Of a DNA stretch of 64,000 nt, positions 1,476 to 35,295 are shown in pieces. Source of the DNA: an uncultured delta proteobacterium (GTDB lineage: Bacteria; Desulfobacterota; Syntrophia; Syntrophales; Smithellaceae); contig CAVSCG010000027.1 of NCBI GenBank assembly GCA_963726395.1, positions 26,328-90,327 of the forward strand. The letters run 5' to 3'. The first letter of the stretch is position 1; every line of letters begins with the position of its first letter. A program made the translations under genes and the position numbers. The notes beneath the pieces were generated by a model. It saw only the letters and a list, made by a program, of their open reading frames with translations. It did not search any database and was not told the origin of the DNA.

Positions 1476-1495
1476 GTGCCTGTTTAATATAATGT

Positions 1496-1753: not shown

Positions 1754-1837
1754 TTCACTTACTCTACATCAAAATATGAACATAGAAACGCGCTTAGAAA
1801 AATTTTTATGCCTGGCTAGCTGTTACACATGCGTCAT

Positions 1838-2050
1838 TTACTCTACTTGAATAAGACTTATTAATTTTTTTATCAAGTCTAGCCCCGGCTCTGTAAAGAT
1901 CGCTACCAATATGAAGAAGAGGATGAATACGATGATTAATTCAGAGTTTCGTACTTTCGGATATTTTCTTTTTACAATGAGGAGAACGATGGCGCCGGCA
2001 ATCAATGCAACCAAATGCATGAATGGGAAAAAATTAAGAAAAAGTTCCAT
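1838..2050 (-). CDS. Small two-TM membrane protein, unknown function
   Basis: 70-aa hydrophobic ORF with a strong AAGGAGA RBS just upstream of the ATG. Confidence 0.45.
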   Translation of the reverse strand: MELFLNFFPFMHLVALIAGAIVLLIVKRKYPKVRNSELIIVFILFFILVAIFTEPGLDLIKKLISLIQVE

Positions 2051-2140
2051 GGGGCTCTCCTTTTAAATAAGATTGTCATTTATAATTAAGAAAAAACTTA
2101 TAGTTGTCAAGGTAAATAAGAACAGGCAGGCAGGTCAATA

Positions 2141-2175
2141 AAAAAGGCCGAATCGAAATTCGGCCTTTTTTATTT
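2141..2175. terminator. Bidirectional rho-independent terminator
   Basis: AAAAA-GGCCGAAT-cgaa-ATTCGGCC-TTTTTT. An 8-bp perfect stem is flanked by an A-tract and a T-tract, just downstream of the stop of 2189..3505. Confidence 0.75.
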
Positions 2176-2188
2176 TAGTTAAGGTCAA

Positions 2189-3505: not shown

Positions 3506-3555
3506 TATGAGTTCCCCCTAATCTTTCTTAATTTTAAAGTTAATTTATTTAAGCA

Positions 3556-3933
3556 TTAACCCAAAAAGAAAGCCTTAAAGGGGTTGGCGTACAATAAGAT
3601 CAGAGCAATAACCAGAGCGTAAATGGCGATAGATTCAGCCATGGCCATACCAACGAGCATAACCATCATGATCTTGCCTTGAACGCCGGGGTTTCTTCCC
3701 ACTGCCTGACAAGCACCGTTTGCAGCATTACCAATGCCCGCGCCAGCGCCGATTGCACCTAGACCGATGGCAAGGCCGGCGCCTATCATTGCGCCTACAG
3801 CAAAAATGACTTTAATGTAGGACTCGCCGCCAACCGGGATAGCATCCGCCGCAAAAGCAAGGTGGCTCGACAACAGCAGGGCCGCTACTGATGTGAAAAC
3901 TGTTAAAAATGTTTTTCCAAAATTGTGTGACAT
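3556..3933 (-). CDS. atpE: F-type ATP synthase subunit c with a signal-peptide-like N-terminal extension
   Basis: GxGxGxG helix 1, GRNPG loop, and MAMAESIAIYALVIALILLYANPF helix 2 with the conserved carboxylate. AAGGAG RBS. The N-terminal 30 aa end in AFA-AD. Confidence 0.85.
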   Translation of the reverse strand: MSHNFGKTFLTVFTSVAALLLSSHLAFAADAIPVGGESYIKVIFAVGAMIGAGLAIGLGAIGAGAGIGNAANGACQAVGRNPGVQGKIMMVMLVGMAMAESIAIYALVIALILLYANPFKAFFLG

Positions 3934-4438
3934 TATTTGACTCCTTTCCTAACATGTTATTTATTATTATTCCTATTATTGCATAGCATATTTTTCTTGC
4001 CACGCAAAGAGGAATTAACATCAATGTCGATCGGCTCGACCTTAATGCACGAGATATGCCATGTCTTCAATCATTAAAGCTTATTTTTAAAAACTGGATT
4101 GAGGAAATCCAGAAATCAAAAAAAAAGCACCTAATTTGTTGAGATTCCTTTAATTCATTTTTCTGCGATGGCGTGAAAAAAAATAAAAAAGAAGAATGTT
4201 CTGCTTCAACAGAACAGGATTTAATTTAAAAATTAAAAAGTGATTTAATGTTTTGTTCAATCGCCTGATATAAAACATTCAACCAAACAGATGCCGACAG
4301 AAATAAATTTTCATTCTATTAAACCGGAACAAATCGTTTTTATATTTCTGTTGAAATTTTGCGGCAATGTCGTTACGATCAAAAATAAGTCGCAACGAAG
4401 TTACAAAATATTAAGAAGTCACTTTACAAGGGATCATC

Positions 4439-4618
4439 ATGCAAGAAATTTTAACCGTCATTGCTTATCCGATCGTCTGGATTATCTGTGCTTATCTTTT
4501 AAATATTGAAAGTGGTCTGGCAAAGCTGCTGATTTCACTGACAGCAGCAATCCTGGTTTATGTTTTAATCGGTATCAAACTCGCTCAAAACGAAAATGAT
4601 AAGGAAAATAAATATTAA
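4439..4618 (+). CDS. 59-aa hydrophobic small protein abutting the kinase gene
   Basis: An ATG ORF (MQEILTVIAYPIVWIICAYLL...) below the ORF-track length cutoff. Its TAA at 4616-4618 is immediately followed by the kinase GTG at 4619. Confidence 0.3.
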   Translation: MQEILTVIAYPIVWIICAYLLNIESGLAKLLISLTAAILVYVLIGIKLAQNENDKENKY

Positions 4619-7198
4619 GTGACTTTGCTCAGAAAGGCATACAAGCTTCTGTATCAAGCATTGAGAGTACGTATCTGGTTGGCCAGCATCGTTGTTATTC
4701 TCCTTATTCTCCTGCTGGCTTGGACGGTCAACAATGCACGTGAAAAAGAGATGGCTAATTTATTCAGCCGCCAACAACTGGCATCCGCTCAAAACGCGTC
4801 GGTGCGATTGACGGAGATTTTTTCACAGGTTGAAAGGAATATTGTTTTATTTTCCCACCTTGATCCCAACGGGAAAAAACTGACGCAGGACGATCATCGC
4901 GAACTTGAGGTGATTTATTCCGTTTGGGGAAAAACGATCGACGCGGTGATGGTCTTTGACGCCGATAATAAAATAAGGCACATTTTGCCCGAGGGCGCCC
5001 TTCCCGCTGTTAATCTAACCAGCCATTTTCAAGCATTGAAACTTCACGGGAGACAGTACCTAAACATAGTTCCATCAGACAACCTTCCAAAAGATTCTAT
5101 TGCTCAAACCAAAAACCGTTATTTAATCTGGGGCTATCCTATCTGGCGCGAGAATAATATTTTCAACGGTGCGTGGATGGTGTCTTTTTCACTGGCTGAA
5201 TTAGTTAATACGTGTGAAAAGCAAATCAAAGACAATCAACTGGGAGACTTGTGGTTGGTGAATGAACAGGGACGGATATTAATGCATCCCTATTCGCCTT
5301 TTATCGGTAAGAACACCAGTGATCTGGTGCAAGATGACCACGGAAACACGATCATATTCTCACCAGAGGGTGGCAGACTCCTGAGTGCAAAAGTTTTGCA
5401 GCGCGACAACAAGATACAAAAAAGCGTAATTGCGTACTACCCAATTCAGATTGCCGGAAACAGATGGTTTGTCATGGTGAAGGCACGTTACAGCAGCATC
5501 ATAGCTCCCGTGCGCACCACATTTGTTTATACCATGTTCAGTGCATTCGTGCTGATTTTAGGCTTGGTTATTGTCGGCATCTATTTTGCTTTCCGTGAAG
5601 GTAAAAGATTACGGATGCGAGAAGAGCAGGAAAGACTCAAAGAGCGAGGAGACTGGCGCGAAAAGCTGCTGAGAGAAAAGAAAACAATTGACGGCATAAT
5701 TGAGGGATCTCCCATCCCCAGTTTTGTCATTAATAGAGAACATCAAGTCATTTTATGGAACCGCGCCTGCATGGAACTTACCGGTTATTCAGCGGATGAT
5801 ATGGTTGGTACGGACCGACATTATTTTCCTTTTTATTCCGTCACCAGACCCATGATTGCCGATTTGATTGTTGATAATGATATAGAAGGCCTGAGTAAAT
5901 ACTATGGCAGCAAAAAGGTCAAAAAATCTGAGAAGGTGATTGGGGCCTATGAAGCAACGGATTATTTTGAAAACCTTGGTGGTCAAAGCCGTTACCTGTA
6001 TTTCCTGGCGGCACCTATTTATGATGAAGAGGGCAGTATTATTGCGGCCATTGAAACCCTGCAGGATGCATCAAGGGAAGAAGAGCTTACCCGCTCGCTG
6101 AGGGAGTATGCGGAAACGCTGCAAAACGAGTTAGCTGAAAATATCGAACTAAGACGGGAGATTGAAGATGTTTATAATTATTTACAATCGATTGTGAAGA
6201 GTCTGCCGGATAAAATTTATGAGTTGGATAAAGACGGTATTGTTAATTTCGTCAGCCGGAGCAAAAAAATAGAAGGCGGTCGATTACAGCGTGAACTCAA
6301 AGGCAGAAATTTTATGGAGTTTGTGGCACCTGAGGATGAAAGTTTTGTGATGTCCAAGTGGGAAGATGCCAAGAAGGGCATTTACACGCCTTATGAAATT
6401 GAAACCACATCGAAAGACGGCCGTAAAATAAATTTTCTGATTACCGCATCTCCAGTTATTGGTACAGATCATTATATTCTGGTACAGCGCGATATTACGG
6501 AATTTAAAAATCTGGAAAAGAAACTCTATAACAGCCAGAAACTGGCGGCATTGGGGCAACTTTCAGCCGGTATCGCCCATGAGGTACGCAATCCTCTGTC
6601 ATCTATTAAGATGAGTTTGCAGATCTTGGAAAAACGGATGAATCCGGAAGGCAATGATCTCAAAAGATTTAAAATCGCACAAAAAGAAGTTGAACACCTC
6701 GAAGAACTGGTTAATAATGTGTTGGTATTTGCCAAACCAGTGGATCCCAAAATGGTCGCTGTCGATCTCATAAAAGTGTTGGAACAGGCCATTGCTCTGT
6801 CGGAAAAAGTCATTCACGATAAACAGGTCAGCATTAAACTGGAAGCACAGGAGATTCCTCAGTGCAACGTGGATGTGGCGATGATTACGGATGCTTTTTT
6901 AAATATTATCCGAAACGCAGCCGAAGCTGCGGATGAAAAAGGTTTCATTCGCATTTTTGCCCGCAGTATTGGCAGTCAACCGCCTGCCGTGCTGGTTGTT
7001 GTAGAGGACAACGGTTGCGGGATTGATGAGGCAGACATGCCTCATCTGTTTAATCCGTTTTTTACCAAGAAAAAATACGGCACAGGCCTTGGACTTTCAC
7101 AGGTATCCAAAATTGTGGAATTGCATCAGGGGAAAATAGAAATTATCAGTGAAAAGGATAAAGGAACGAAGGTTTGTGTTACATTGCCCTGTGATTAA
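4619..7198 (+). CDS. Sensor histidine kinase (TM, periplasmic Cache-like, PAS x2, HisKA, HATPase_c)
   Basis: H-box AHEVRNPL, DNGCGI and GTGLGLS ATPase boxes, two TM segments flanking a roughly 270-aa extracytoplasmic domain, and PAS-like segments. Confidence 0.9.
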   Translation: MTLLRKAYKLLYQALRVRIWLASIVVILLILLLAWTVNNAREKEMANLFSRQQLASAQNASVRLTEIFSQVERNIVLFSHLDPNGKKLTQDDHRELEVIYSVWGKTIDAVMVFDADNKIRHILPEGALPAVNLTSHFQALKLHGRQYLNIVPSDNLPKDSIAQTKNRYLIWGYPIWRENNIFNGAWMVSFSLAELVNTCEKQIKDNQLGDLWLVNEQGRILMHPYSPFIGKNTSDLVQDDHGNTIIFSPEGGRLLSAKVLQRDNKIQKSVIAYYPIQIAGNRWFVMVKARYSSIIAPVRTTFVYTMFSAFVLILGLVIVGIYFAFREGKRLRMREEQERLKERGDWREKLLREKKTIDGIIEGSPIPSFVINREHQVILWNRACMELTGYSADDMVGTDRHYFPFYSVTRPMIADLIVDNDIEGLSKYYGSKKVKKSEKVIGAYEATDYFENLGGQSRYLYFLAAPIYDEEGSIIAAIETLQDASREEELTRSLREYAETLQNELAENIELRREIEDVYNYLQSIVKSLPDKIYELDKDGIVNFVSRSKKIEGGRLQRELKGRNFMEFVAPEDESFVMSKWEDAKKGIYTPYEIETTSKDGRKINFLITASPVIGTDHYILVQRDITEFKNLEKKLYNSQKLAALGQLSAGIAHEVRNPLSSIKMSLQILEKRMNPEGNDLKRFKIAQKEVEHLEELVNNVLVFAKPVDPKMVAVDLIKVLEQAIALSEKVIHDKQVSIKLEAQEIPQCNVDVAMITDAFLNIIRNAAEAADEKGFIRIFARSIGSQPPAVLVVVEDNGCGIDEADMPHLFNPFFTKKKYGTGLGLSQVSKIVELHQGKIEIISEKDKGTKVCVTLPCD

Positions 7199-7263
7199 AG
7201 GCATCGCGTCACAGAAGATAGAAAACTCTAAAAACGGATCATGAAGATTAGGAAATCCGTTGA

Positions 7264-8667
7264 ATGGCGAAGGTTACGATTATGGCGAGTATTCTGGTTA
7301 TTGATGATGATGAATCGATTGTGGAAACGCTGGATTTGTATTTAACGGAGGAGGGATACACCGTCAGGACAGCCCTGACTGGTACCGATGGCTTGAATCA
7401 ATACGTGCAGGAACCATCGGATGTGGTCATTCTGGATATCCGCCTGCCGGATGTGGATGGGTTTTCCGTTCTGGAAGATCTGAAGGAAGAAAATGAAAAT
7501 GTCAAAGTGATCATGATTACCGCCTTCCATGATATGGAAACAACTATCAATGCCATGAAGTGCGGCGCTTTCGATTATATCCATAAGCCGGTCAATGTTG
7601 ATGAGCTGGATCTGGCGATTAAGAAGGCATTGAAATCCCTTGAGATGGAGAAAAAGATTGACGGCCTTCTCATGGAGCCGTCACGCAATTTCCGGGTGGG
7701 TGATATCATTGGCACTGGCAATGAAATGCGGGAAATTTTCAAGACGATCGGCACGGTCTCCAAAAGCCGCACGACGGTACTCATTCAAGGTGAGAGCGGT
7801 ACAGGTAAAGAATTAATTGCCAAGGTTGTTCATAATAATACCTCTCCCGATGAACCGTTTATTGCTGTGAACTGTTCTGCCATTGTCGAGACGCTCTTAG
7901 AATCGGAATTATTCGGCCATGAAAAGGGTTCCTTTACCGGGGCTGTTGCCCGTAAACTGGGCAAATTTGAACTGGCGCGCTTCGGCACGGTATTTCTGGA
8001 TGAAATAAGTGAAATGTCCGTTAATTTACAAGCCAAACTCCTTCGTGTTTTGCAGGAAATGGAATTCGAACGCGTCGGGGGCAAGGACCATGTGAAGGTG
8101 CATGCACGCATCATGGCCGCGACCAATAAAGATTTAAAATTGATGGTCAAAGAGGGCAAATTCCGGGATGACTTGTATTACCGCTTAAATATTGTTGCCA
8201 TTAACCTGCCACCGTTGCGTACGCGTCGCCAGGATATCCCGCATCTGATTGACTATTTGTTGTCGAAGATTAACCTGGATCTGCATAAAAAAATTGTCGG
8301 TGTTTCCGGTGAAATGATGGAAAAGTTCATGACCTATTCCTGGCCGGGTAATATTCGCGAACTGGAGAATCTGCTGGTGAGGGCTTGTGTCGTTGCCAAA
8401 GGCCAGGTTTTGGGCGTCGGTGATTTTCCGGAGTTGGGCAAGGATGATCCATCCATTGTGGTGCGAAAGGATGAAACCACGGATGTATTTATGCCGGACC
8501 AGCTGGGTAAATTTTTAACCCTCGATCAGGTTGAAGAACGTTACATTCGTAAAATCATTAAAGAAACAGAAAAAAATAAAGGTGAAATTTGTGAAACACT
8601 CGGCATTTCCCGACCCACCTTCGAGCGAAAACTTGAAAAATACGGGATAACTTTTGAACGGGAATAA
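7264..8667 (+). CDS. Sigma-54-dependent response regulator (NtrC family)
   Basis: REC domain (VLVIDDD...D), AAA+ GESGTGKE Walker A, GSFTGA (GAFTGA variant), and a C-terminal Fis-type HTH (ETLGISRPTFERKL). Confidence 0.9.
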   Translation: MAKVTIMASILVIDDDESIVETLDLYLTEEGYTVRTALTGTDGLNQYVQEPSDVVILDIRLPDVDGFSVLEDLKEENENVKVIMITAFHDMETTINAMKCGAFDYIHKPVNVDELDLAIKKALKSLEMEKKIDGLLMEPSRNFRVGDIIGTGNEMREIFKTIGTVSKSRTTVLIQGESGTGKELIAKVVHNNTSPDEPFIAVNCSAIVETLLESELFGHEKGSFTGAVARKLGKFELARFGTVFLDEISEMSVNLQAKLLRVLQEMEFERVGGKDHVKVHARIMAATNKDLKLMVKEGKFRDDLYYRLNIVAINLPPLRTRRQDIPHLIDYLLSKINLDLHKKIVGVSGEMMEKFMTYSWPGNIRELENLLVRACVVAKGQVLGVGDFPELGKDDPSIVVRKDETTDVFMPDQLGKFLTLDQVEERYIRKIIKETEKNKGEICETLGISRPTFERKLEKYGITFERE

Positions 8668-8672
8668 ATAAA

Positions 8673-9272
8673 TTGAAAATTATTAGTGCAGAATTTGTAA
8701 AAAGCGCGGTCTGGCCGCCTCAGTATCCGCCGGCTACAATGCCGGAAATTGCCTTTGTGGGACGCTCCAATGTCGGGAAATCATCCTTGATGAATACACT
8801 GGTCGGCCGGAGAAAACTGGCCAAAACCAGCAACACGCCTGGGCGTACCCAGTTAATCAATTTTTTTACCGTCAATGATTCCATGTCATTTGTCGATCTG
8901 CCGGGTTATGGTTTTGCCAAAGTAGCCCGGTCCGTAAAAAAAGATTGGGGAGACATGATGGAAGCTTATCTGCGCGAACGGCAAAATCTTGCGATGGTCA
9001 TTTTTATTCTGGATATCCGCCGCGATCCCAGTGAGGATGATTTATCTCTGCGCGACTGGCTGGAACATTATCGTATTCCCTATATATCTATCTTAACCAA
9101 ATCCGATAAATTGTCTAATAATCAGGCTATTGGAAGAAGGAAACTCATCGAGAAATCGTTGGGTACACACGCTCAGAAAAAAACAATTCTTTTCTCCGCA
9201 AAAACACAAAAGGGAAAGGAAGAGCTTTGGCAATTTCTCGAAAATCATCTATCTTCCCTGGGAAACGGTTAG
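8673..9272 (+). CDS. engB: Ribosome-biogenesis GTPase YihA/YsxC
   Basis: GRSNVGKSSL G1, DLPGYG G3 and TKSDK G4 motifs. Size is 199 aa. Confidence 0.85.
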   Translation: MKIISAEFVKSAVWPPQYPPATMPEIAFVGRSNVGKSSLMNTLVGRRKLAKTSNTPGRTQLINFFTVNDSMSFVDLPGYGFAKVARSVKKDWGDMMEAYLRERQNLAMVIFILDIRRDPSEDDLSLRDWLEHYRIPYISILTKSDKLSNNQAIGRRKLIEKSLGTHAQKKTILFSAKTQKGKEELWQFLENHLSSLGNG

Positions 9273-9583
9273 CGCAAAAGTATTTTAATCACCAACGCTT
9301 TTTCGGATCGTCTTCGAGCAACTTAAGGTCTTAAAATTAAGAATAAAATGAGTTGGAATGTCAAGATTTTAAAATAATTTTCTTGGAAATAATGAATACA
9401 TTATGAACGTTGGTCAAATATTTACATGCATTATATTAGATACTTAAATGCTAAAATCCAAATGAATCAATCTTCTGAGCTTGACATGATAAATAAAGTA
9501 TGTTAGCCGACGGACGCTGATCGGACGATGTGTCAGACAGATTTTCACAGGGCTTCTTTATATAAATTACGAGGTGTAATCAC

Positions 9584-12500
9584 GTGGTAAAAGATAACGA
9601 AAAAGTTGGTGCAGTAATGGTGGTTGGCGCTGGAATCGCCGGCATTCAGGCCTCCCTTGATTTAGCCAATTCGGGAATGAAAGTCTATCTCGTCGAAAAC
9701 GGGATCAGCATCGGCGGCGTCATGGCCCAGTTGGATAAAACCTTTCCTACAAACGATTGTTCTGCCTGTATCCTTTCTCCGAAACTGGTTGAAGTTGGCC
9801 GTCATCCGAATGTTACGATCAAAACAAGACGCACTGTAGAATCCGTGGAAGGCGAGCCGGGGAAATTTAAAGTTAAGCTGACTTCCGCCCCGCGTTACGT
9901 AAATCTCGACAAATGCACGGGTGCGGAGACTGCGCCAATGTCTGCCCGATTACCGTCAAAGCCGCCTTCAATGGTGAGCTGAGCGAAAGAAAAGCCATCT
10001 ATCGACACTTCCCACAGGCCATTCCCAGCGGTTTTGCCATTGATAAACTGGGAACGTCGCCCTGCAAAGCCAATTGTCCAACCCACATCAGCGTTCAAGG
10101 TTATGTTGCGCTTATCGCTGAAGGAAAATTCAAGGAAGCCCTCAAGCTTATCAAGCAGGACAACCCGTTCCCCATTGTTTGCGGCCGCGTCTGTAACCAT
10201 CCATGCGAAACGGCCTGTATGCGCGGCAAAGTGGATGAACCGATCGACATTATGCATCTGAAGCGTTTTGTTGCGGATTTGGATCTGAACAGCGATACAC
10301 GCTATTTGCCCGAAAAGAAAGAAAGCAAAGGTAAGAAAGTCGCTGTGGTCGGCGCCGGACCTTCCGGACTTACCTGTGCCTACTATCTGGCGATTGAAGG
10401 CTATGATGTGGAGGTTTTTGAAGCCCTGCCGGTTGCGGGCGGCTGGATGGCCGTCGGCATTCCCGAATATCGTCTTCCCAAGAATGTCCTGAATGCGGAA
10501 ATTAAAGTCATTCAAGACCTGGGCGTCAAGATTCATCTCAACACAAGAATCGGCAAAGACATTTCCTTCGACAAACTTAAAAGCGATTATAGCGCAGTTT
10601 TCATCGGTTGCGGTACCATGAAGAGCAGCAAGCTCAATATTCCCGGTGAAGACATGCAGGGTGTCATCCATGGCGTGGATTACCTGATGCAGATTAATCT
10701 GGGTAAAAAAGTCTCCTTAGGCGACAGAGTCGCCGTTATCGGTGGCGGTAACGTTGCGATGGACGCGGTCCGCACAGCGGTTCGCACAGGATCCAAAAAT
10801 GTTTTCATCCTCTATCGCCGGACGCGCGCTGAAATGCCGGCTTCGCCCGAAGAAATCGAAGAAGCGATCGAAGAAGGAATTGAAATGAAATTCCTCGTTG
10901 CCCCGAAAAAAGTTGTGGGCAAGGATGGAAAAGTAACCGGTATAGAATGTACACGCATGGAACTGGGCGAGCCGGATGCCAGTGGTCGTCGCCGTCCCAT
11001 TGAAATTAAAGGTTCCGAATTTGTCGTCGAATGCGACGCCATTCTTCCTGCCATCGGCCAGGAAGCGGATTTGTCTTTCATTACCAAGGAGAGCGGCGTT
11101 TCCATCAACAAGTGGAACAATGTCGATTACGATAATGTGACTTACGCGACAAACCTTCCCGGCGTTTTCTCCGGCGGTGATGTTGTCACCGGTCCACAAA
11201 CCGTTGTGAAAGCTGTTTTTTCCGGTAAGGAAGCGGCCAAATCCATCGACCGCTATTTGCAAGGCGTTGATATGAAAGCCGGCCGTGAAAAAGACTGGAC
11301 CAAAGACCTGGCGGATAAAGCCGACGTTTCCAGCGTGCCCAAGGTTGCCCGGGAAAAATATCCAAACATGAAGCCGGAAGAACGCAAAACAAGCTTTCAG
11401 GAAGTAGGTATTGGCTTTGCCGAAGCCCGGGCGATTGCAGAAGCCAATCGCTGCTTGGCCTGCGGCATTTGTTCCGAATGTTATCAGTGCGTGGACGCCT
11501 GTATTGCCAAGGCCATTGATCACGATATGAAAATTGAAGAAGAAACGATTGAAGTCGGCGCCGTGATCGCGTCGCCCGGTTTTGAAATATTTGACGCCGG
11601 CAAGCGCGGTGAATATGGCTACGGCATTTATAAAAATGTTGTTACCGCGCTGCAATTTGAACGTATTCTGTCTGCGTCCGGTCCTTTCTTCGGCCATGTC
11701 CAGAGAATTTCCGACGGCAAGGAGCCCAAGAAGGTTGCTTTTATTCAATGTGTTGGTTCACGCGACGTTTCCTGCGGCAACAGCTGGTGTTCATCGGTTT
11801 GCTGCATGTATGCGACCAAAGAAGCCATCATTGGCAAGGAACACGCCAAGGGACTGGAACCCACCATTTTCTACATGGACATCCGCGCACATGGTAAGGA
11901 TTTCGACCGGTTTGTCAATCGTGCTAAGGATGAATATGGCATTCGTTACATCCGCTCCATGCCGTCCGTCATCAAGGAATTACAGCAGACCAACAATCTG
12001 CTCATCAAGTATGTAAACCAGGACGGCAGTTTTACGGAAGAAGAATTTGACATGGTCGTTCTGTCCGTCGGTCTCATGCCGCCCAAAGAAGCCAAAAAGC
12101 TTTCCGCAAGTCTCGGCATTGAGCTGGAGGGACACGGGTTCTGCAAGACTGATCTGGAAAATCCCGTTCAGACCTCGCGTCCCGGCGTCTTCGTTTGCGG
12201 AGCCTTCGGCGGACCCAAAGATATTCCTGAAACGGTTATGGAAGCCTCGGCTGCAGCAGCCTGTGCTGAAGGGCTCTTGGCCTCGAAGCGCGGCACGATG
12301 ATTACCCCGGCGGATAATCCGGAGGAAAAAGATCTGCGTGGCCAGGGTGTGCGCACCGGTGTATTCGTCTGCCATTGTGGTATCAACATCGGCGGTGTCG
12401 TCAATGTTCCCGAAGTCCGGGACTATGCCGCAACCCTGCCCACTGTTGTTTATACAGCCGATAACCTCTTCACCTGTTCGCAGGATACAGCGGTGAAGAT

Positions 12501-26394: not shown

Positions 26395-26486
26395 ATCGAG
26401 TCACTTTACTATTTAATATCTTTTTATTATTGATTTTTTATAACGATTGCTTTAACGTTCGTCAATTATTTTTTAAGGAATGGAAC

Positions 26487-28686
26487 ATGAAATATACTCA
26501 AACACCTCTCAAACATGGATATGCCGATCAGACTCTGGCCATAGATTTGACAAACGGTGAAATGGATGTTCGTCCACTTAACCCGCAAGTTCGTGATTTT
26601 TTCATCGGTGGCAGAGGATTGGGGCTTTATTTGTTGCATAAAAATAGTTAACGCCGGCAAAATCGGCATATGATCCGGGAAATCCACTGATTTTTTCATC
26701 AGGGCCGCTGGGAGGCATTCCGCAATTTCCGGGGACGAGCAAATGTATGGCGATTTCCCTATCCCCATTAACCCATATTCCAGGTGTTTCTAATTTTGGC
26801 GGCCATTTTGGCGCTTTTCTGAAATATGCCGGATTCGATGCGCTGACAATCACCGGCAGCGCCGGAGACGAAAGTGATGATTGTGATCGATGGTTTACGG
26901 CAGGAAGTGAGCATTGGCCGAAGCGTCCGCGGCTGATCAGGTCTTTGATCTGGAAAAAGCTATTGTCGATCAATTTTAAGGGAAGGTCGATGAAAAGAAG
27001 AATATTACTTTTTTGACCACCGGCATGGGTGCGGCTAATACCAATTTCGGCTGTATCAACAGCCACTATTATGACGCCACCAAGCCGGTTGGCGGAAAAA
27101 AAGGTCTTTTCCGGACAAAGCAGGCCGGGCGCACAGGACTGGGTTCCGTCATGAGTCAGAAGAAAATTGCCGCGATTGTCGTTCTGGCGGATTTTCCTCA
27201 CGGTGAATAATCCTTATGGCGCGGCGGATTGGGACAAAGTTAAAGAAGCGGGATTGAAGCTGCATAAGGATCGTCAAAGAAGTCGATCCGCACGCACTGC
27301 AAAATGTCACTTGAAAGGATCGGCCGGCTTGATTTCTTTTATGAATAAGGATGAGTATCAATCTCTGCCGGTGAATAATTACCAGTATGGCTCGCACCCG
27401 AAGGCGGGACAAATCTGCGGGAAAAGCTATGCGGAGCGGCTTTTTGATCACCGGGGTATGGATGGATGTTTCCCCGGCTGTAATTTGCGCTGTACAAAAG
27501 GCGGATGGGTCATGCTGACCACGGGTGAGCATTGCGGCCGTAAGGTCTGGGTGGACGGTCCGGAATATGAAACCGCCGCCGGTTTTGGTTCCAACCTTGG
27601 CATGTGGCATCCCGAATTCATCATGGAAGCCAACTGGCATTGCGATAATTACGGTATCGATACCATCACCACCGCCGTCATCATGTCCTTTATTGATGGA
27701 ATGCTATCAGCGCGGAATATCTGACCGGGGAGGAAACGGACGGCTTTGTGTTGACCTGGGGCGATGAACAAGCAGCGCTGCAGTTTATCCATGATCTGGC
27801 GCGGCGCAAAACAGAGTTGACCAGTGTTGCCGGCCTGGGAATGCTGGAACTCATGGCCTGGGTTGCCGAAAAATATGCAGCCAGAACCGGTAAGCCCGAT
27901 CTCGATAAGGGAACTCAGCAATTTGCCATGCAGACCAAAGGGTTGCCGTTTCTCTCTTTACCGGACGCACCGTTCTTTGTCCATGCAGGCTTCCTATGCG
28001 GCCGCCAGTGATATCGGCGCGCATCACGCCGCTGCTTGGCTGGTGAAAGTGGATTTGCTGGGCGCGTTTCCGACTTTTGAGGCCAAAGCCAATGCTTTGA
28101 TCACTTATCCGCGCGTTCGTTTGGGCAACGACAATATGGGATTTTGCAAGTTACCCTGGGTGGATGTTTTCAATCCGACTTCCATGAAACGCCACGAATA
28201 CGGATATCTATATCAATCCCGCATCACAGGAACTTTATGCTGATTTCTACAATGGCATGTTGGGTACAGATTTGACCTGGGAGAAGATTTTTGAGCAGAC
28301 AGACAGGGATATCAATTTGCAGCGTGTCATGAATGTACTGTCCTTTGGCGCGACAACCGGCGAGCGCGACTGGATTCCCGACCGGGCTATCGGCCCCACG
28401 GATGATGCTCTTTATGATAATGAAAAAGATTATAATGATAAACAACTAGTCGCTTTTCTCAATAAACCGCTGATCAGAAATTCAATGATGCAAACTGCTG
28501 AAAAGCGGGGAGCGCTCATGAAGCATCGCAAGGAAGAATTGCGAAAGTTGATTCATATTTATTACTGCGCAGCGCGGTTGGACGGATAAAGGCATTCCGA
28601 AAATTGCTACCCTCCAACAAATCGGCCTGTGGGATTTCTTGAGCGAAGAGGCCAGAACAAGAATCACCGCAATGAACGGGCGTTAG
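26487..28686 (+). pseudogene. Tungsten-type aldehyde:ferredoxin oxidoreductase (AOR family), reading frame broken at least 8 times
   Basis: AOR-like segments are spread over all three + frames: GGRGLGLYLL; SGPLGG...MAISLSPLTHIPGVSNFGGHFGAFLKYAGFDALTITG; GPEYETAAGFGSNLG; YYAQRGWTDKGIPK...*. ORFs 26430, 26747, 27013, 27167, 27525, 27748, 27824 and 28257 plus a frame-1 tail end at TAG 28684-28686. Confidence 0.85.
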
Positions 28687-29539: not shown

Positions 29540-29825
29540 ATTGATCGAAGGGGCTGAAGCGGCCTGCTCTCGCCAATGCTAAAAATCTCACATCACCAAA
29601 CCGATATGTGGAAGATCAATTACTCGCCATTCACCTTAAAACAACAGGATGACGTGTATTTGTAACATATTATTCGATCATATTCTTCAAATTACTAAGC
29701 TACTTGTATGTTACTTATAAAAATACTTTCTGAAATGGAAGAGAGAAGAGAACTGCGCCAGCAATCAATCCGTGTAAGCAAATTCCAAGATACCTTGCCA
29801 TAAAGTAGGAACATCCTCGGAAGGT

Positions 29826-32306
29826 TTATTCCACCTTATGTGGAAGGAACGAATCATATGATCTAATAAACTTACCATCTTTGAATAGACCGGTGTATTT
29901 TCTTCCATATGAAAATGTCATCATTCCCCAGCCATGAGGGAGACCATATTCCAGTTCACCGATGTATTTTCTCCCGTCAGTCAAGGTGAGCTCCCCGTTT
30001 CCATGATACTTGTTATCTTTGAACTCACCATTATATCTGTCGCCATTAGGATACGTCAGAACACCTTTTCCATTTTGTAAGCCGTTTTTAAACTCTCCAA
30101 CATATTTTGTTTTATTAGCCAGGATCAAAGTACCATTCCCTTCATACTTCCCTTCCCTAAACTTGCCCTCATATTTTTTCCCATCAGGATGGCTCTCGAC
30201 CCCTTCTCCATGGTATAAGTTATTCTTCCAAGTACCCTTATAGTTTCCGCCACCATGCATAGTGAGGACTCCCTTACCTTCCATCACATCTTCCTTCCAT
30301 TGACCAACATAAACAGAACCGTCCGCGAAGGTGAAGATGCCCGGTCCATTCCTTTCCCCCGAATTCCACTCACCTTTATACTCTCCACCATCAGGGAAGG
30401 TCATAACACCCTGCCCGTGGGGAAGATTATCCTCCAGTTCACCCTCATAACTTCGACCATTACCATAAGTCACGGACTCTTGTCCGTCAGAAATATCCAT
30501 CTTTGTTTCGGTAGATAAAGATTCCTGTTCTACTAATAATTTATCCTTTGCTTTTCCGTCTCCTTTTTCCTTGACCTCTGCCATCAAATGCTCTATTTCT
30601 TCCGCCTTGGTTCTGACCTCCATTTCTGCCTTGAGTCTGCCTGCCTCTGCCTCCCTGATCTTGGCTTCCGCCTGCACTCTGGCCTTCACTTCCGCTTCTA
30701 CCCGTGCCTTCAATTCCGCTGTAAATCGGACGGCCTCTTCCTCTCTGATTTTGGTTTCTGCTTCAGCACTCTCTTTCGTCTTCAGCTCGGCCACCAGCCG
30801 ATCTACTTCTTCCGCCTTGGTTCTGACCTCCATTTCTGCCTTGAGCCTGGCTGCCTCTTCCTCCCTGACCTTGGCTTGCGCCTCCACTCTGGCGTTCACT
30901 TCCGCTTCTACCCGTGCCTTCAATTCCGCTGCAAATCGGGCTGCCTCTTCCTCTCTGATTTTGGTTTCTGCTTCAGCACTTTCTTTCGTCTTCAGCTCGG
31001 CCACCAGCCGATCTACTTCTTCCGCCTTGGTTCTGACCTCCATCTCTGCCTTGAGTCTGGCTGCCTCTGCCTCCCTTAGCGGTGTCTCTGCTCCCGCCCT
31101 GGCATTCGTTTCTGCTTCTACCCGTGCCTTCAATTCCGCTGCAAATCGGGCTGCCTCTTCCTCTCTGATTTTGGTTTCTGCTTCAGCACTCTCTTTCGTC
31201 TTCAGCTCGGCCACCAGCCGATCTACTTCTTCCGCCTTGGTTCTGACCTCCATTTCTGCCTTGAGTCTGGCTGCCTCTTCCTCCCTGACCTTGGCTTGCG
31301 CCTCCACTCTGGCGTTCACTTCCGCTTCTACCCGTGCCTTCAATTCCGCTGCAAATCGGGCTGCCTCTTCCTCTCTGATTTTGGTTTCTGCTTCAGCACT
31401 TTCTTTCGTCTTCAGCTCGGCCACCAGCCGATCTACTTCTTCCGCCTTGGTTCTGACCTCCATCTCTGCCTTGAGTCTGGCTGCCTCTGCCTCCCTTAGC
31501 GGTGTCTCTGCTCCCGCCCTGGCATTCGTTTCTGCTTCTACCCGTGCCTTCAATTCCGCTGCAAATCGGGCTGCCTCTTCCTCTCTGATTTTGGTTTCTG
31601 CTTCAGCACTCTCTTTCGTCCTCAGCTCGGCCACCAGCCGATCTACTTCTTCCGCCTTGGTTCTGACCTCCATTTCTGCCTTGAGTCTGGCTGCCTCTTC
31701 CTCCCTGACCTTGGCTTGCGCCTCCACTCTGGCGTTCACTTCCGCTTCTACCCGTGCCTTCAATTCCGCTGCAAATCGGGCTGCCTCTTCCTCTCTGATT
31801 TTGGTTTCTGCTTCAGCACTTTCTTTCGTCTTCAGCTCGGCCACCAGCCGATCTACTTCTTCCGCCTTGGTTCTGACCTCCATCTCTGCCTTGAGTCTGG
31901 CTGCCTCTGCCTCCCTTAGAAGTGTCTCTGCTCCTGCCTTGGCCTTCGCTTCTGCTTCTTCACGCACCTTCAATTCCGCTGCAAATCGGGCTGCCTCTTT
32001 CTCTCTGATCGTTACTTCTGTGTCTCCCTTCTTCTTGGCCGTTGCTTCATCTTTTGCCTTTCTTTCAACCTGCTCCTTTATTTTAGACTCTTCTACCAGA
32101 TGGGTATCTACTTCAACCCTGACCTTGGCTCCTATTTCTTCTTGTGCCTTCAATTCGGCGACCTGCCGGCCGATCTCAGACGCCTTATCTATGGCTTCCA
32201 TCTCTGCCCTGAGTCTTGCTGCCAATCGGGTCTTTTCTTCCTTTGTCGCCGGCTTGTCTGCGTCTCCGTAGTCTCCGTATTCTCTGTAATCATTAAACCA
32301 CTTCAT
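29826..32306 (-). CDS. Repeat protein: about 560 aa of E/A/K/R-rich helical 70-aa repeats plus C-terminal MORN repeats (about 9)
   Basis: No signal peptide. Repeats such as EAARLKAEMEVRTKAEEVDRLVAELKTKESAEAETKIREEEAARFAAELKARVEAE. The C-terminus has YxGxWxxGxxxGxG MORN units (YEGELEDNLPHGQG, YKGEWNSGERNGPG, ...). Confidence 0.85.
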   Translation of the reverse strand: MKWFNDYREYGDYGDADKPATKEEKTRLAARLRAEMEAIDKASEIGRQVAELKAQEEIGAKVRVEVDTHLVEESKIKEQVERKAKDEATAKKKGDTEVTIREKEAARFAAELKVREEAEAKAKAGAETLLREAEAARLKAEMEVRTKAEEVDRLVAELKTKESAEAETKIREEEAARFAAELKARVEAEVNARVEAQAKVREEEAARLKAEMEVRTKAEEVDRLVAELRTKESAEAETKIREEEAARFAAELKARVEAETNARAGAETPLREAEAARLKAEMEVRTKAEEVDRLVAELKTKESAEAETKIREEEAARFAAELKARVEAEVNARVEAQAKVREEEAARLKAEMEVRTKAEEVDRLVAELKTKESAEAETKIREEEAARFAAELKARVEAETNARAGAETPLREAEAARLKAEMEVRTKAEEVDRLVAELKTKESAEAETKIREEEAARFAAELKARVEAEVNARVEAQAKVREEEAARLKAEMEVRTKAEEVDRLVAELKTKESAEAETKIREEEAVRFTAELKARVEAEVKARVQAEAKIREAEAGRLKAEMEVRTKAEEIEHLMAEVKEKGDGKAKDKLLVEQESLSTETKMDISDGQESVTYGNGRSYEGELEDNLPHGQGVMTFPDGGEYKGEWNSGERNGPGIFTFADGSVYVGQWKEDVMEGKGVLTMHGGGNYKGTWKNNLYHGEGVESHPDGKKYEGKFREGKYEGNGTLILANKTKYVGEFKNGLQNGKGVLTYPNGDRYNGEFKDNKYHGNGELTLTDGRKYIGELEYGLPHGWGMMTFSYGRKYTGLFKDGKFIRSYDSFLPHKVE
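30601..32070. repeat. Tandem coding repeat, 210-bp unit alternating in two variants (420-bp super-unit), about 7 units
   Basis: TCCGCCTTGG recurs at 30601, 30811, 31021, 31231, 31441, 31651 and 31861. 30841-31260 versus 31261-31680 differ at 2 of 420 positions by eye. Confidence 0.95.
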
Positions 32307-32337
32307 AAAAGTCCTCTTCTGATCAGTCCAAACTTTC

Positions 32338-33849
32338 TTAATTTCCCTTATGATTTTGCCAGAAAATTAAATCTACCTGTGGATCACTTTTCGGGGTGCC
32401 GGTCATTTCTACGAAATAGTTTTCCCAGGCATCGGCAATCCCCTCGAAGGTCAGAGCCGGCGGTTGGCAATAGTATCTGGACTGATCGATAATATGATCG
32501 ATCAAATCACGCGGATGGTTGGCGCTGGGCCGGATGCCGAGTTTTCTGTAGTAGTTGTCTATCAGGAAACGAAAAACCTCCTGATTAAAAATGACGCCTC
32601 TTGTTTCGCACACCTTCCTGAAAATGGCCTCGAATTCAACTTCTGAAGGATAGTCTATTTTCATTTTGTATCTAATTCTTCTCAAAAAGGCCTCATCCAC
32701 CAGTTCTCTCGGTTCCAGGTTTGTGGCAAAGACAATGAGTTGGTCAAAGGGGATCTCAAACTTCACCCCCGTATGTAAGGTCATGAAGTCGACGTGTCTC
32801 TCCAGCGGAACGATCCACCGGTTTAGGAGCATTTTGGGTTCTATGAGCTGCCTGCCGAAATCATCGATAATAAAGATACCGTTGTTGGCCTTCATCTGCA
32901 GAGGCGCGTTATAAAATTTTGACATGGGATTAAAATCTAAATCAAGCGTTTTCAGGGTCAGTTCCCCCCCGACGGTGACAACCGGCCGCTTTACAGACAC
33001 CCATCTTTTGTCTGTCTCGCCTTTCGTGACAGCATTGTGGGGATGGTGCGTGACTGGATCGTAGATGCTGATTAATTCTCCCCCGACATATATGGTATAG
33101 GGTATATAGATTGCTTGAGGAAAGACTCTGCCTATAGTTTCGGCGATGGAGGTCTTCCCGTTCCCCGAAGGGCCGTAAAGAAAAATGGCACGGCCTGAAA
33201 TCAACGCCGGGCCGAGACGTCTCAGGAATTGCGGGTTGATCACCAGAAATGAAAATGCCTGCACCATATCTTCATGCCGGATCTCTGCATTTTTGATGGA
33301 TTGCGAAATAGTTATTTTTCGATAATCACCGAGAGACACCGGTGCCGGTCCAACATAGTGGCAAACTTCAAGAAGCTTCTCGGCCTTGTTTTGACCTATC
33401 CCTGAAATGGCATATCTGTAGGAAGATCGGTTATAATCGGCTGCCCCTTTAACCTCGATCATTTTCTCCCGTTTCAGCCCCTCTAGGAGGGAGTCGGCGA
33501 TGCTTGTGGGAAGTTTTAAATTTTCTGCAATATCGGCCAGCTTGAATTCACCCAATAAGGCAATATGTTTCAGGGTCAGGTCGGTAAGAAAGGATGGCTC
33601 AAGGCCGGTTTCTTCGATGTTTTTCGGTGCAGGTGGGGCTTTATACATAAAATTTTTGAGCTGCTGTGCTGTGACATATCCCATTGAGATGAGGTTGTCG
33701 CCAACCCTTCCTCCGCTGCTTTTCTGCTTGTCCAAGGCTTCTTCAAGCTGTTGCGCCGTGATGATATTCTCCTGCAGCAGCTTTTCGCCAATCTTTGATT
33801 CCGGGGGAAAATCTGTTTTTCTCTCTAAATCTGTTTTTTTAATCGTCAT
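32338..33849 (-). CDS. AAA+ ATPase (MoxR/McrB-like core) with an N-terminal MshEN/T2SSE_N-like domain and a winged-helix-like linker
   Basis: N-terminal KIGEKLLQENIITAQQLEEALDKQ...RVGDNLISMGYVTAQQL. Walker A GPSGNGKT, Walker B IFIIDDFG, and VFATN...DEAFLRRI sensor region. Confidence 0.85.
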   Translation of the reverse strand: MTIKKTDLERKTDFPPESKIGEKLLQENIITAQQLEEALDKQKSSGGRVGDNLISMGYVTAQQLKNFMYKAPPAPKNIEETGLEPSFLTDLTLKHIALLGEFKLADIAENLKLPTSIADSLLEGLKREKMIEVKGAADYNRSSYRYAISGIGQNKAEKLLEVCHYVGPAPVSLGDYRKITISQSIKNAEIRHEDMVQAFSFLVINPQFLRRLGPALISGRAIFLYGPSGNGKTSIAETIGRVFPQAIYIPYTIYVGGELISIYDPVTHHPHNAVTKGETDKRWVSVKRPVVTVGGELTLKTLDLDFNPMSKFYNAPLQMKANNGIFIIDDFGRQLIEPKMLLNRWIVPLERHVDFMTLHTGVKFEIPFDQLIVFATNLEPRELVDEAFLRRIRYKMKIDYPSEVEFEAIFRKVCETRGVIFNQEVFRFLIDNYYRKLGIRPSANHPRDLIDHIIDQSRYYCQPPALTFEGIADAWENYFVEMTGTPKSDPQVDLIFWQNHKGN

Positions 33850-33950
33850 TGTCTTTTCTTTCGTGAGTTCCTAAATGATAGAAAGTGGCAATGGTTAGAA
33901 GAAAATTCAGGCAGGTGTATCTGGATCGCAGCCTCTGAATGTCATGCGAG

Positions 33951-34544
33951 TCAACCATTGATGACAGAAAGGACTCCCTCATATTCTGCTCCATCGAAAG
34001 GCGATACCGGAGCAGGGAGTAGAGCGTCAATTGTGAGCCTGAGTCGCTTTTTTTCAACCTCATCGACACCTCGGGCGCTAATCGCTAGTTGACCTGAGTC
34101 CATGCGTTCCACCCAGCCCTTGGCCTTTAGATACCACAGATGGAACTCAACCAACTCAATCGGTTTGCAGAGGAGGCGTGCCACTTCGTATTCACCTATT
34201 CCCGGGTTATTCATACTGCGCCGGCGCTGAATGTACAGAAGTGAAAGCAGACTCTCGCGAGTTTCCAAGTCTTCGCCGATCGCAGTCCCATCGCTTGCCT
34301 CTGACGCAAGCCTCCACTTATGGTTCCAATACTCCTGATATTTGACATCGTAACCTGCGCGATTCTCAGGGTTAGTGAGAGTCTGGTAAGCATTGAGAAT
34401 CAATTGGAATCGGTCATTGTCTGCTGATTGTGTGTTATCGGGGTGAAACTTCTTAGCAAGATGCCGAAAGACTCGCTCAATGGTATCGATATCGGCGTTC
34501 GAGCTCAGTTGCAACGCTTCATAGTAATCAATGAAGCCCATCAA
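33951..34544 (-). CDS. J-domain protein with a C-terminal winged-helix-like domain
   Basis: DYYEALQLSSNADIDTIERVFRHLAKKFHPDN (HPD motif). The C-terminal part has no Gly/Phe or zinc-finger region. The likely start is the ATG at 34541. Confidence 0.85.
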   Translation of the reverse strand: MMGFIDYYEALQLSSNADIDTIERVFRHLAKKFHPDNTQSADNDRFQLILNAYQTLTNPENRAGYDVKYQEYWNHKWRLASEASDGTAIGEDLETRESLLSLLYIQRRRSMNNPGIGEYEVARLLCKPIELVEFHLWYLKAKGWVERMDSGQLAISARGVDEVEKKRLRLTIDALLPAPVSPFDGAEYEGVLSVING

Positions 34545-35295
34545 TAAACCCCTTTTTTGTCGAGTCGTCGAAAATAAAATTTTATATTTTAAAACGTTTT
34601 ATCGGTGAAGCATAGCTTCCCCTTTGCAGCAACATACAGCAATTAATATGCCCGACACGAATCCATGCTAGACTTCAGACCCAATTCGATCGCTTTCTCT
34701 TTAATTATTAAATATTTAGCCTTTTAAAGACGCAGATTATGTGATGCCTTCCCCTCTTCTAATCGTCCGTGATTTTCACCATCCATCAGTAAATTTAAGC
34801 ACATCTGTCGTACTGCATGAACTGGATGAACCTTCCCCCCTTTTATGACCTCAACTTCCCATAATGGTAATTAGGAAGAAGTGCTCAAATGCGATCCTTA
34901 TGCGAGCCTCCTCATTCTAAGCAAGCTACCCAATTCCTCTAAAACCCGGTCGGAAAGATAGATTGCTTCTTCGCTTTGACCATACGCTAATCACAAGTAC
35001 CCTGACCACCAAAACTCGGCCCGAGGTAATATGAGTGCGCCACAATCCAGCTTGGTACGGCAAGACCGCAATGACAGTGTTGGAGAAACTGAAAAACATC
35101 GTTATCGTCTGTTTTAAAAAGAAACTTATCTTTGCAGGCGTGATTGGGTCGGGTCTTCCTTTGATGGTTATGCAGTAATGGGTGACGTTCTGTTTTCCTG
35201 TTGTTTGCCAGATCCTGATTGTGATACAGAAAGCTTCTTGACAAGCCAAAACGGCCCCCATATACTTCGGCATCTCAAAAGCAATGACTTAATCA

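Follow-up and report, generated by a model that had tools for sequence, protein, structure and literature searches.

In this work, three adjacent genes were analysed in a 64,000-nucleotide stretch of DNA (the window) from an uncultured delta proteobacterium of the family Smithellaceae (GenBank assembly GCA_963726395.1, contig CAVSCG010000027.1). The genes, all located on the minus strand, encode a 197-amino-acid (aa) class III/C J-domain protein that carries a winged helix in its C-terminal part (g1, 33951..34544), a 503-aa ATPase composed of an MshEN_N domain, a winged helix-turn-helix (wHTH) and an AAA+ module (g2, 32338..33849), and an 826-aa protein made of a rod and MORN repeats (g3, 29826..32306). 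The trio most likely represents three separable functions that lie side by side in one lineage, with no dedicated three-part machine. Our preferred explanation, held with moderate confidence, is that the genes are separable and that the ATPase is a member of a Tad-associated family of AAA+ proteins responsive to cyclic di-GMP (c-di-GMP). The triad does not represent a novel type of system; what appears to be new, as judged from sequence comparison, is the fusion of an MshEN c-di-GMP receptor to a different class of ATPase, within a family that is tied to Tad pili and still uncharacterised.

Distribution and separability of the three genes

The first-pass annotation of the window had interpreted the three genes as one system, and had named their co-occurrence in other genomes as one of the points on which this interpretation turned. 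Loci were fetched around g2 homologues (41 from genomes and 63 from metagenomes, plus targeted contigs), and g1, g2 and two halves of g3 were compared by phmmer with the open reading frames (ORFs) of the 113 fetched loci, most homologues being viewed with a flank of ±5-7 kb only. The J-domain, ATPase and rod genes are present together only in loci L010, L051 and L052 and, partly, in the deletion allele L110, in all cases with protein identities of at least 90%. No J-domain or MORN neighbour was found in about 95 loci with g2 homologues at 35-70% identity; the same is true of the Syntrophales relatives at 61-68%, including L042 (68%), L045/L046 (Syntrophus aciditrophicus) and L116, and likewise of L043. 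Homologues of the J-domain protein (72-78% identity) were identified in five loci on long contigs (L047-L050 and L115), where the neighbouring genes are unrelated to g2 or g3, and neither an ATPase nor a J-domain gene was found near P0241, the closest other rod-MORN gene. In total, about 95 ATPase loci, 5 J-domain loci and 1 rod-MORN locus are without the partner genes, and a conserved three-gene system in unrelated genomes is not supported. The same annotation had remarked that the combination matches no described system, and this agrees with the full-text literature searches made here, which gave no account of a J-domain, MORN and AAA+ combination as a described system.

That the genes are separable is observed in natural deletion alleles. 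Four structural alleles exist among close relatives, and three of them are distinct natural deletions. In three independent assemblies with identical breakpoints (L037, L097 and L098), the segments corresponding to window positions 34528-34025 (the J-domain gene) and 33341-32404 are gone, the latter encoding the ATPase from residue 171 on (171-503); despite these deletions, L097 encodes an intact 792-aa g3 protein with its MORN domain. In L110, positions 33699-32441 (most of the ATPase) are gone, the J-domain gene is intact and the start of g3 is kept. The deletion in L051 covers positions 34312-33979, which encode the winged helix of the J-domain protein, and part of the leader is gone as well. 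L010 and L052 contain about 250 extra nucleotides (nt) between g2 and g3. In the deletion alleles, g3 is intact wherever the contig extends to it. Substitution patterns indicate that intact copies of g1, g2 and g3 are under purifying selection: the ratio of nonsynonymous to synonymous substitution rates (dN/dS) in comparisons with close relatives is 0.19-0.26 for the J-domain gene, 0.17-0.22 for the ATPase gene and 0.13 for the MORN domain of g3 (versus L097, which carries both the J-domain and the ATPase deletions), and 0.58-1.07 for the N-terminal part of the g3 rod. To judge from this deletion polymorphism, at least some populations may be able to do without the orphan ATPase and J-domain copies.

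Comparison by blastn with relatives of ~81-95% nucleotide identity (L010, L052, L037, L097 and L098) delimits a 5.1-kb block (29776..34873, minus strand) as the only part of the window that is common to them. The block includes a 5' region of ~330 nt, g1, g2 and g3, and ~50 nt of 3' sequence. The flanks of the relatives hold ordinary metabolic genes (for FakA-like kinase, thioesterase, B12-radical SAM enzyme, enoyl-CoA hydratase, aromatic amino acid lyase and ketoacyl synthase) and gave no tblastx match to the 64-kb window. Mobile-element boundaries were considered for the block and found no support, since there are no terminal direct or inverted repeats at its ends and no integrase or transposase genes in the flanks of the relatives.

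Domain architecture of the ATPase

The N-terminus of the g2 protein contains an MshEN_N-type motif pair at residues 19-68 (33646..33795, minus strand). This region matches the NCBIfam model NF053729 (MshE-related c-di-GMP motif) with 62.8 bits against a cut-off of 38, and the nearest solved sequence is the N-domain of MshE from Vibrio cholerae (5HTL, E 7e-9). A relaxed pattern for the 24-residue MshEN motif was defined by Wang et al. 2016 (PMC5013675), and on reading the sequence both 24-residue motifs of g2 fit this pattern save for one residue each. Motif 1 includes K19-I-G21 and Q42, with N28 at the place of the expected turn Gly, and motif 2 includes R48-V-G50, G57, L64 and M68, with A71 replacing the second Gln (Gln61). 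Across the g2 family, residues G21, Q42 and G50 do not vary, and R48 hardly does. The presence of MshEN implies c-di-GMP sensing; since both motifs are recognisable but deviate at N28 and A71, binding of c-di-GMP by g2 is likely but not certain.

In the AlphaFold2 (AF2) model of g2 (predicted template modelling score 0.70), the motif pair is followed by a winged helix at residues 85-162 (33364..33597, minus strand), which is well defined, with a predicted local distance difference test score (pLDDT) of ~81-93, and which resembles in Foldseek searches the MarR-family wHTH proteins BpsR, YusO and ZitR. The AAA+ module and lid (residues ~190-480, 32410..33282, minus strand) are modelled as an alpha/beta domain with a family-specific beta insertion at residues ~252-314, followed by a helical lid. 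The Walker A motif GPSGNGKT corresponds to G226-T233 and the Walker B motif IIDD to I327-D330. Walker A, D329-D330, N377 (a sensor-1 candidate), R390/R391 and R447 are invariant in 36 g2 homologues, and every family member examined has DD in Walker B, with Asp at the position where the catalytic Glu is usual. A DD Walker B motif would fit a slow, switch-like ATPase.

By sequence, the neighbours of g2 among solved structures are spastin, NSF/Sec18 and VCP, and the second region of homology (SRH) of spastin matches g2 residues 353-429 (E 3e-5). The top fold match is a hexamer from Pyrococcus furiosus (8P49, Foldseek E 8e-10), followed by the AAA+ modules of Lon, and the Pfam AAA model is under its cut-off (15.8 vs 21.2). 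On these similarities the core looks like a classic/Lon-like AAA+ module, and by analogy with its best fold match g2 is probably a ring hexamer. The first-pass description of g2 was therefore accurate for the AAA+ assignment, the GPSGNGKT motif, the MshEN-like N-terminus and the winged helix; its proposal of a MoxR/McrB-like core has to be abandoned, as neither Pfam nor NCBIfam gave a match to this class and no MoxR/McrB structure is among the Foldseek matches listed. Searches of Pfam and NCBIfam also gave no sigma-54 interaction domain and no signature of bacterial enhancer-binding proteins (bEBPs). Membership of g2 in the IetAS system was rejected: the IteA model scored 29.5 bits against a cut-off of 510, the PADLOC matches extend over ~20-50 residues, and there is no protease gene.

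Association of the g2 family with Tad/Flp operons

An exhaustive search of 1.84 billion representatives returned 774 g2-family clusters (50% identity) at E<=1e-30, and at 90% identity the family comprises more than 8000 clusters. Over residues 70-480, the g2 core shares 35-60% identity with homologues from Acidobacteriota, Nitrospirota, Rhizobium and Burkholderia. Many family members align solely over residues ~71-481, which correspond to the wHTH-AAA+ core, and longer members contain an FHA (P0401, P0419) or HDOD (P0445) N-terminus replacing MshEN. The family thus appears to combine a fixed wHTH-AAA+ core with an interchangeable N-terminal sensor: MshEN, FHA or HDOD.

The genomic context of the family was established by clustering of the neighbour genes across all loci, followed by Pfam searches with the representatives. 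Genes for TadA/CpaF and/or TadB/C are located upstream of the g2 homologue in 35 of the 55 loci whose upstream flank extends over at least 4 kb. In the Tad-type loci, the homologue is preceded by genes for TadA/CpaF (T2SSE), two TadB/C proteins (T2SSF) and a TPR protein. An SLT transglycosylase and a VWA protein are encoded downstream of it in Acidobacteriota, and in Nitrospirota and Thermodesulfobacteriota a membrane-anchored low-complexity protein, termed c23, is encoded directly upstream. The c23 gene occupies the -1 position in 22 loci (L002:5315-6889, L006:4844-6958, L040:4444-6966, L102:2447-4942 and 18 further loci), usually following tadA, tadB, tadC and a TPR gene. Proteins of the c23 family have an N-terminal transmembrane (TM) helix, then a P/E/K/A-rich low-complexity stretch of 300-600 aa and, at the C-terminus, a conserved domain of ~130 aa with the signature ...IFWDDED.F[ST]G...S.TKFN..TG..W[KR]E; they have no Pfam match. 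In L006 and L040, the genes downstream of the g2 homologue encode a response regulator, a histidine kinase and a GAF-HD-GYP phosphodiesterase.

In L042, the Syntrophales homologue of 68% identity adjoins genes for Flp pilins, the prepilin peptidase TadV, RcpC and secretin, as well as a TadZ-like gene. Two further homologues belong to annotated megaplasmid tad operons, in which they are labelled only 'ATPase AAA' or 'ATP-binding protein'. On the Rhizobium etli plasmid pRetIE4771e (L117, 8947-10251), the homologue (an 'ATPase AAA') ends an operon with the order secretin, TadG, TadE, TadE, then CpaF, T2SSF, T2SSF and the g2 homologue. In Burkholderia pyrrocinia (L118, 7899-9299), it is located between prepilin peptidase and CpaB, in an operon that starts with three Flp genes and has the secretin gene after CpaB. 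Altogether, 76 plasmid records, mostly from Rhizobium, contain a g2 homologue.

A phmmer search with TadA, TadB/C, c23, TPR, SLT and VWA proteins against six-frame segments of the 64-kb window gave no match to any of them. Because tad-type homologues are absent across these 64 kb, the g2 gene of the window is regarded as an orphan copy, like those of L043, L045 (S. aciditrophicus) and L116. The family as a whole can be described, on the basis of domain composition and gene neighbourhood, as a putative signal-input-swappable AAA+ ATPase tied to Tad pili and uncharacterised to date. No account of a Tad-associated MshEN or AAA+ protein of the g2 type was found in the searched literature, and accounts outside it are possible. 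FrgA of Myxococcus xanthus was considered as a characterised g2 homologue and rejected, as Wang et al. give for it the architecture MshEN-UNK-HEAT, which is a different one.

The J-domain protein

The J-domain of g1 (residues 6-66, 34347..34529, minus strand; HPD at residues 34-36) matches the Pfam family DnaJ (PF00226) with 61.4 bits against a cut-off of 27.8, and H34-P35-D36 are invariant across 33 homologues. Foldseek gave matches to J-domains with root-mean-square deviations of 1.3-2.7 Å, for example to CbpA (3UCS, TMt 0.84-0.90). According to the alignment of homologues, the likely real start of the gene is the ATG at 34541. In the AF2 model (mean pLDDT 72), the J-domain is followed by a linker helix and then by a winged helix at residues 92-167 (34044..34271, minus strand), which is composed of the helices (H) and strands (E) H92-109, H118-125, H129-141, E145-147, E153-155 and H157-167 (block pLDDT 76-87). 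This winged helix has weak MarR/MepR matches in Foldseek and no match in Pfam. The first-pass reading of g1, a J-domain with HPD joined to a winged-helix C-terminus, is borne out by the Pfam score, the invariant HPD and the model.

The NCBIfam equivalog models for DnaJ, CbpA and HscB cover only the J-domain of g1, all far under their cut-offs; the DnaJ and CbpA models score 44-59 bits against cut-offs of 338-403, which places g1 outside the class I/II equivalogs. A G/F region and a zinc finger are absent. The g1 family consists of stand-alone proteins of ~200 aa; identity among the best 120 matches is 64-97% across almost the entire protein, and the family extends to Acidobacteria. It is an uncharacterised but conserved family of class III J-proteins, whose winged helix is presumed to bind a client or DNA. 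The identity of ~70% between the Syntrophales and Acidobacteria members implies a conserved, specific DnaK client. Homology between the winged helices of g1 and g2, as a possible sign of a shared partner, was rejected (hhalign probability 0.2%).

As a side observation, genes for HD-GYP (HD_5) phosphodiesterases are located 2-4 kb from the J-domain-wHTH homologue in three of five loci (L047 2746-4062, L048 2108-3523 and L115 1854-3164). Two of these three loci are mutually syntenic, and the proximity may be a coincidence in organisms with many HD-GYP genes.

The rod-MORN protein

The rod of g3 is encoded by a tandem DNA repeat array (30592..32009, minus strand) with a 210-nt unit in alternating A and B forms, which gives a period of 420 nt; TRF reports 6.8 copies at 91% identity and 3.4 copies at 96% identity. 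The array encodes seven exact E/A/K/R-rich helical repeats of 70 aa, the motif spacing being exactly 70 aa six times running, and residues 21-590 of the rod contain 24% E, 22% A, 11% K and 11% R. The MORN domain (residues ~620-815, 29862..30449, minus strand) matches Pfam PF02493 with 141.9 bits (E 1e-42) and includes eight complete units with a spacing of 23 aa (residues 620-803) and a ninth, partial unit. The first-pass annotation had described a long helical repeat with about nine MORN units; the rod and the MORN count stand, and the 'helical repeat' is now specified as a near-perfect tandem DNA array. On reading the sequence, no signal peptide or TM segment is obvious. No close full-length homologue beyond the lineage is present among the matches listed, and the best other rod-MORN match, P0241 (976 aa), has MORN repeats at both ends and a MORN domain 62% identical to that of g3. 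The g3 protein is lineage-specific, and its rod evolves fast.

Three further MORN proteins deserve mention. Within positions 1152-11082 of locus L114 (contig CAZWCC010000043.1), the P0241 gene is followed by DUF4062/HATPase_c_4, SNF2-helicase and AAA_15 genes in a defence-island-like arrangement; the gene upstream of it was considered as a hidden g2 homologue and rejected (BLASTP E 0.12). In P0305 (517 aa), MORN repeats are fused across TM segments to a C-terminal J-domain, and in P0311 (925 aa) they are fused to two AAA modules of the CbxX/SpoVK type.

Proposed functions and alternative explanations

Under the preferred explanation, c-di-GMP would bind to the four-helix bundle formed by MshEN_N in g2 and gate ring assembly or ATP turnover of an ATPase that is probably hexameric by analogy with 8P49. 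The winged helix of g2 would hold the target, which may be a protein or DNA, a Tad platform or c23-type partner being favoured, and the invariant DD in Walker B suggests slow, switch-like hydrolysis. The most likely role of the g2 family would be to control or remodel the Tad pilus machinery, or surface behaviour, in response to a signal. Independently, the HPD motif of g1 would trigger ATP hydrolysis by DnaK on a client bound by the g1 winged helix. The MORN end of g3 would probably dock to a membrane lipid or a protein partner, and the length of the protein would vary via gain and loss of repeats.

Several points weigh against this explanation. The link to Tad pili is guilt by association only, about one-third of the well-flanked g2-family loci are without tad genes, and the MshEN motif of g2 is imperfect (N28 for the turn Gly and A71 for the second Gln). 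The co-occurrence evidence covers ±5-7 kb around most homologues, not whole genomes, and a lack of conserved adjacency is still compatible with a lineage-specific partnership or with action in trans. The common strand, the spacing of 31 and 101 nt and the lack of a predicted terminator fit co-transcription, and co-transcribed genes often cooperate. The fusions in P0305 and P0311 give a weak hint at functional affinity between MORN and J-domain proteins and between MORN and AAA proteins. Finally, the 5.1-kb block was kept while its flanks differ, so the trio came through at least one rearrangement or transfer as a unit.

Because of this last point, a lineage-specific module is retained as an alternative, which we consider improbable. 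Here the c-di-GMP-sensing ATPase, the J-domain protein and the rod-MORN protein would form a new operon with products cooperating in the Smithella clade; for example, the c-di-GMP-activated ATPase and DnaK recruited by the J-domain protein may assemble or disassemble a MORN-anchored rod scaffold. The tight same-strand spacing with no predicted internal terminator, the wholeness of the block in relatives with different flanks, the purifying selection on intact copies of all three genes and the existence of MORN-J-domain and MORN-AAA fusions elsewhere are consistent with such a module. However, the triad is absent beyond relatives of at least 90% identity, and in every other lineage examined the J-domain gene stands by itself among unrelated neighbours and the ATPase gene is found in tad operons or alone. 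The three deletion alleles remove the J-domain gene and/or the ATPase gene while g3 is intact and constrained, and the two winged helices have no profile similarity. A bolder form of the same idea, which we regard as very unlikely, is that an orphaned Tad-type ATPase was rewired into a translocating 5.1-kb module with a J-protein and a length-variable rod-MORN protein, in which c-di-GMP would gate how a membrane-docked cytoskeletal ruler is assembled or taken apart with the assistance of the AAA+ protein and DnaK. If true, this would be a second-messenger-controlled bacterial chaperone-scaffold system with no described counterpart.

A different view of g2 itself, which we consider unlikely, is that it functions not mainly as a remodeller but as a c-di-GMP-responsive DNA-binding regulator, similar to FleQ, of tad or surface genes, and perhaps of g3 in this lineage. 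The DD in Walker B of all members examined, with the slow, switch-like ATPase activity that it suggests, would suit a regulator, as would the well-modelled MarR-like wHTH between the sensor and the AAA+ module. FleQ provides a precedent for c-di-GMP-binding AAA+ regulators (cited in PMC5013675). Yet winged helices also make protein-protein contacts, neither Pfam nor NCBIfam detects a sigma-54 interaction domain or bEBP signature, and the strongest similarities of g2 are to substrate-remodelling AAA proteins with an SRH (spastin, NSF and VCP) and to Lon. Moreover, the family is located inside structural tad operons, beside the platform and ATPase genes, not upstream of them. Least credible, and in our opinion close to dismissal, is a defence or conflict cassette, a mobile island of fast turnover that combines an IetA-like ATPase with a repeat-bearing MORN sensor. 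This idea draws on the weak partial IetA matches of g2 (PADLOC E 4e-8; NCBIfam IteA 29.5 bits), on the presence/absence and deletion polymorphism with differing flanks in relatives, on the fast-evolving repeat rod and on the RadC gene that adjoins in the window; bacterial MORN domains are also frequently joined to caspases, trypsin-like proteases, TIR domains and kinases, and the g3-like P0241 is encoded near SNF2 helicase, AAA_15 and DUF4062/HATPase_c_4 genes. Against it, the IetA matches extend over ~20-50 residues, far below the cut-off of 510, and no IetS-like protease or effector domain is present; PADLOC gave no match for the J-domain protein and for g3 only a weak match (E 8e-4) to a Type I specificity subunit, with no passing stretch. 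The conservation across phyla is housekeeping-like (~70% for the J-domain protein between Syntrophales and Acidobacteria, 55-70% for the ATPase), no integrase, transposase or terminal repeat was seen, and the conserved context of the family is that of Tad pili.

Comparison with known systems

A first close parallel is provided by the traffic ATPases MshE, PilB and PilF (MshEN-T2SSE), which are c-di-GMP receptors of type IV pili and the type II secretion system (PMC5013675). With these proteins g2 shares the tandem 24-residue motif of an N-terminal MshEN_N domain, the fusion of this sensor to an ATPase, and a link to type IV filaments, which for g2 means Tad and exists at the family level only. 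Unlike them, g2 has a wHTH-AAA+ ATPase with SRH-like arginines instead of the PilT/VirB11-type T2SSE, it has no T2SSE_N1, and the copy in the window is not beside any pilus gene. The MshEN_N-wHTH-AAA+ architecture is absent from the 2016 catalogue of MshEN architectures (Wang et al., PMC5013675). FleQ, like g2, is an AAA+ protein with a DNA-binding-type HTH; its activity is set by c-di-GMP and it controls surface behaviour. In FleQ, however, c-di-GMP is bound by the AAA+ domain, and there are a sigma-54 interaction module and an HTH at the C-terminus; in g2 the sensor is a separate MshEN domain, the wHTH is N-terminal and MarR-like, and a bEBP signature is missing.

The best fold match of g2, Q8U0N8 of P. 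furiosus (PDB 8P49, determined by cryo-electron microscopy; E 8e-10 over ~390-410 columns), forms a hexameric ring, has an N-terminal domain that is flexible, and lacks a Pfam assignment. It is 12-14% identical to g2 and has no MshEN, and, being uncharacterised, it informs on architecture but not on mechanism. The accessory ATPases of Tad systems (ParA-like TadZ/CpaE and the TadA/CpaF motor) share operons with g2 homologues, together with TadB/C, CpaB and secretin; unlike them, g2 is neither of the ParA/MinD type nor of the T2SSE type. The B. pyrrocinia operon encodes a separate TadZ-like 'AAA family ATPase' alongside the g2 homologue, and the canonical list of Tad components in a 2026 preprint contains no g2-type protein. 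IetA has short local similarity to g2 in the Walker A and sensor-2 regions; unlike IetAS, g2 is without an IetS protease partner and, with 29.5 bits against 510, is not a member.

Class III/C J-proteins (the J-domain of CbpA, DjlA and HscB) resemble g1 in the combination of a canonical, HPD-containing J-domain with a specialised targeting domain; in contrast to theirs, the C-terminal winged helix of g1 is not in Pfam and defines a distinct family of ~200-aa proteins. The first-pass annotation had also drawn an analogy with ARC6 (J-like) and ARC3 (MORN) of chloroplast division. The only common feature is the presence of J and MORN domain types; beyond these generic domains the sequences are unrelated, an FtsZ context is missing and J and MORN proteins are not paired in a conserved way, and the analogy finds no support.

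Organization of the locus and surrounding DNA

The ORF call reproduced the three genes of the first-pass annotation, their coordinates, their intergenic distances of 101 nt (g1-g2) and 31 nt (g2-g3), and the flanking gaps 29540-29825 (3', noncoding, 286 nt) and 34545-35295; the ORFs go far beyond what chance would produce. A consensus scan predicted no intrinsic terminator between the genes on the minus strand; hits resembling promoters are at chance level only. The short distances, the common strand and the lack of a predicted internal terminator make co-transcription plausible, and the genes are probably co-transcribed. Of the 750-nt upstream intergenic region, or leader (34545..35295), only positions 34545-34873 are conserved in relatives. 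A riboswitch or other RNA in the leader was rejected, as it gave no Rfam match at the gathering score or at E<=1, c-di-GMP riboswitches included, and its fold is unremarkable (z-score -0.29).

The G+C content of the window is ~48%. GC and AT skews are strongly negative at 30-32 kb, which reflects the purine-rich coding strand of g3, and a 566-aa S/A/L-rich ORF antisense to the g3 repeat array (30571-32271, plus strand) is an artefact of composition, not a gene. The nearest public relatives are Smithella-like Syntrophales metagenome-assembled genomes, and the g2 protein of L010 ('uncultured Smithella sp.') is 93% identical. Elsewhere in the window, the sole Rfam match is a full-length RNase P RNA of bacterial class A (1103-1478, plus strand; 328.6 bits). 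The aldehyde:ferredoxin oxidoreductase (AFOR) gene at 26430-28589 (plus strand) is broken into at least seven collinear fragments across three reading frames (AFOR_N positions 2-40, 74-112 and 163-196; AFOR_C positions 16-139, 158-208, 205-281 and 299-365). This reflects either a pseudogene with several frameshifts or an error in the local assembly; the adjoining genes are intact.

Concluding remarks

The triad is probably no system, which removes an attractive but misleading lead and exposes two conserved, uncharacterised protein families in its place. The g2 family, with MshEN, FHA and HDOD inputs, is embedded in Tad/Flp operons from Acidobacteriota, Nitrospirota and Thermodesulfobacteriota to Rhizobium and Burkholderia. 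To our knowledge, the route by which c-di-GMP and other signals reach Tad pili is still poorly understood. The sensor-wHTH-AAA+ family is a concrete candidate for this signal input, and one that would be genetically testable in culturable rhizobia and Burkholderia.

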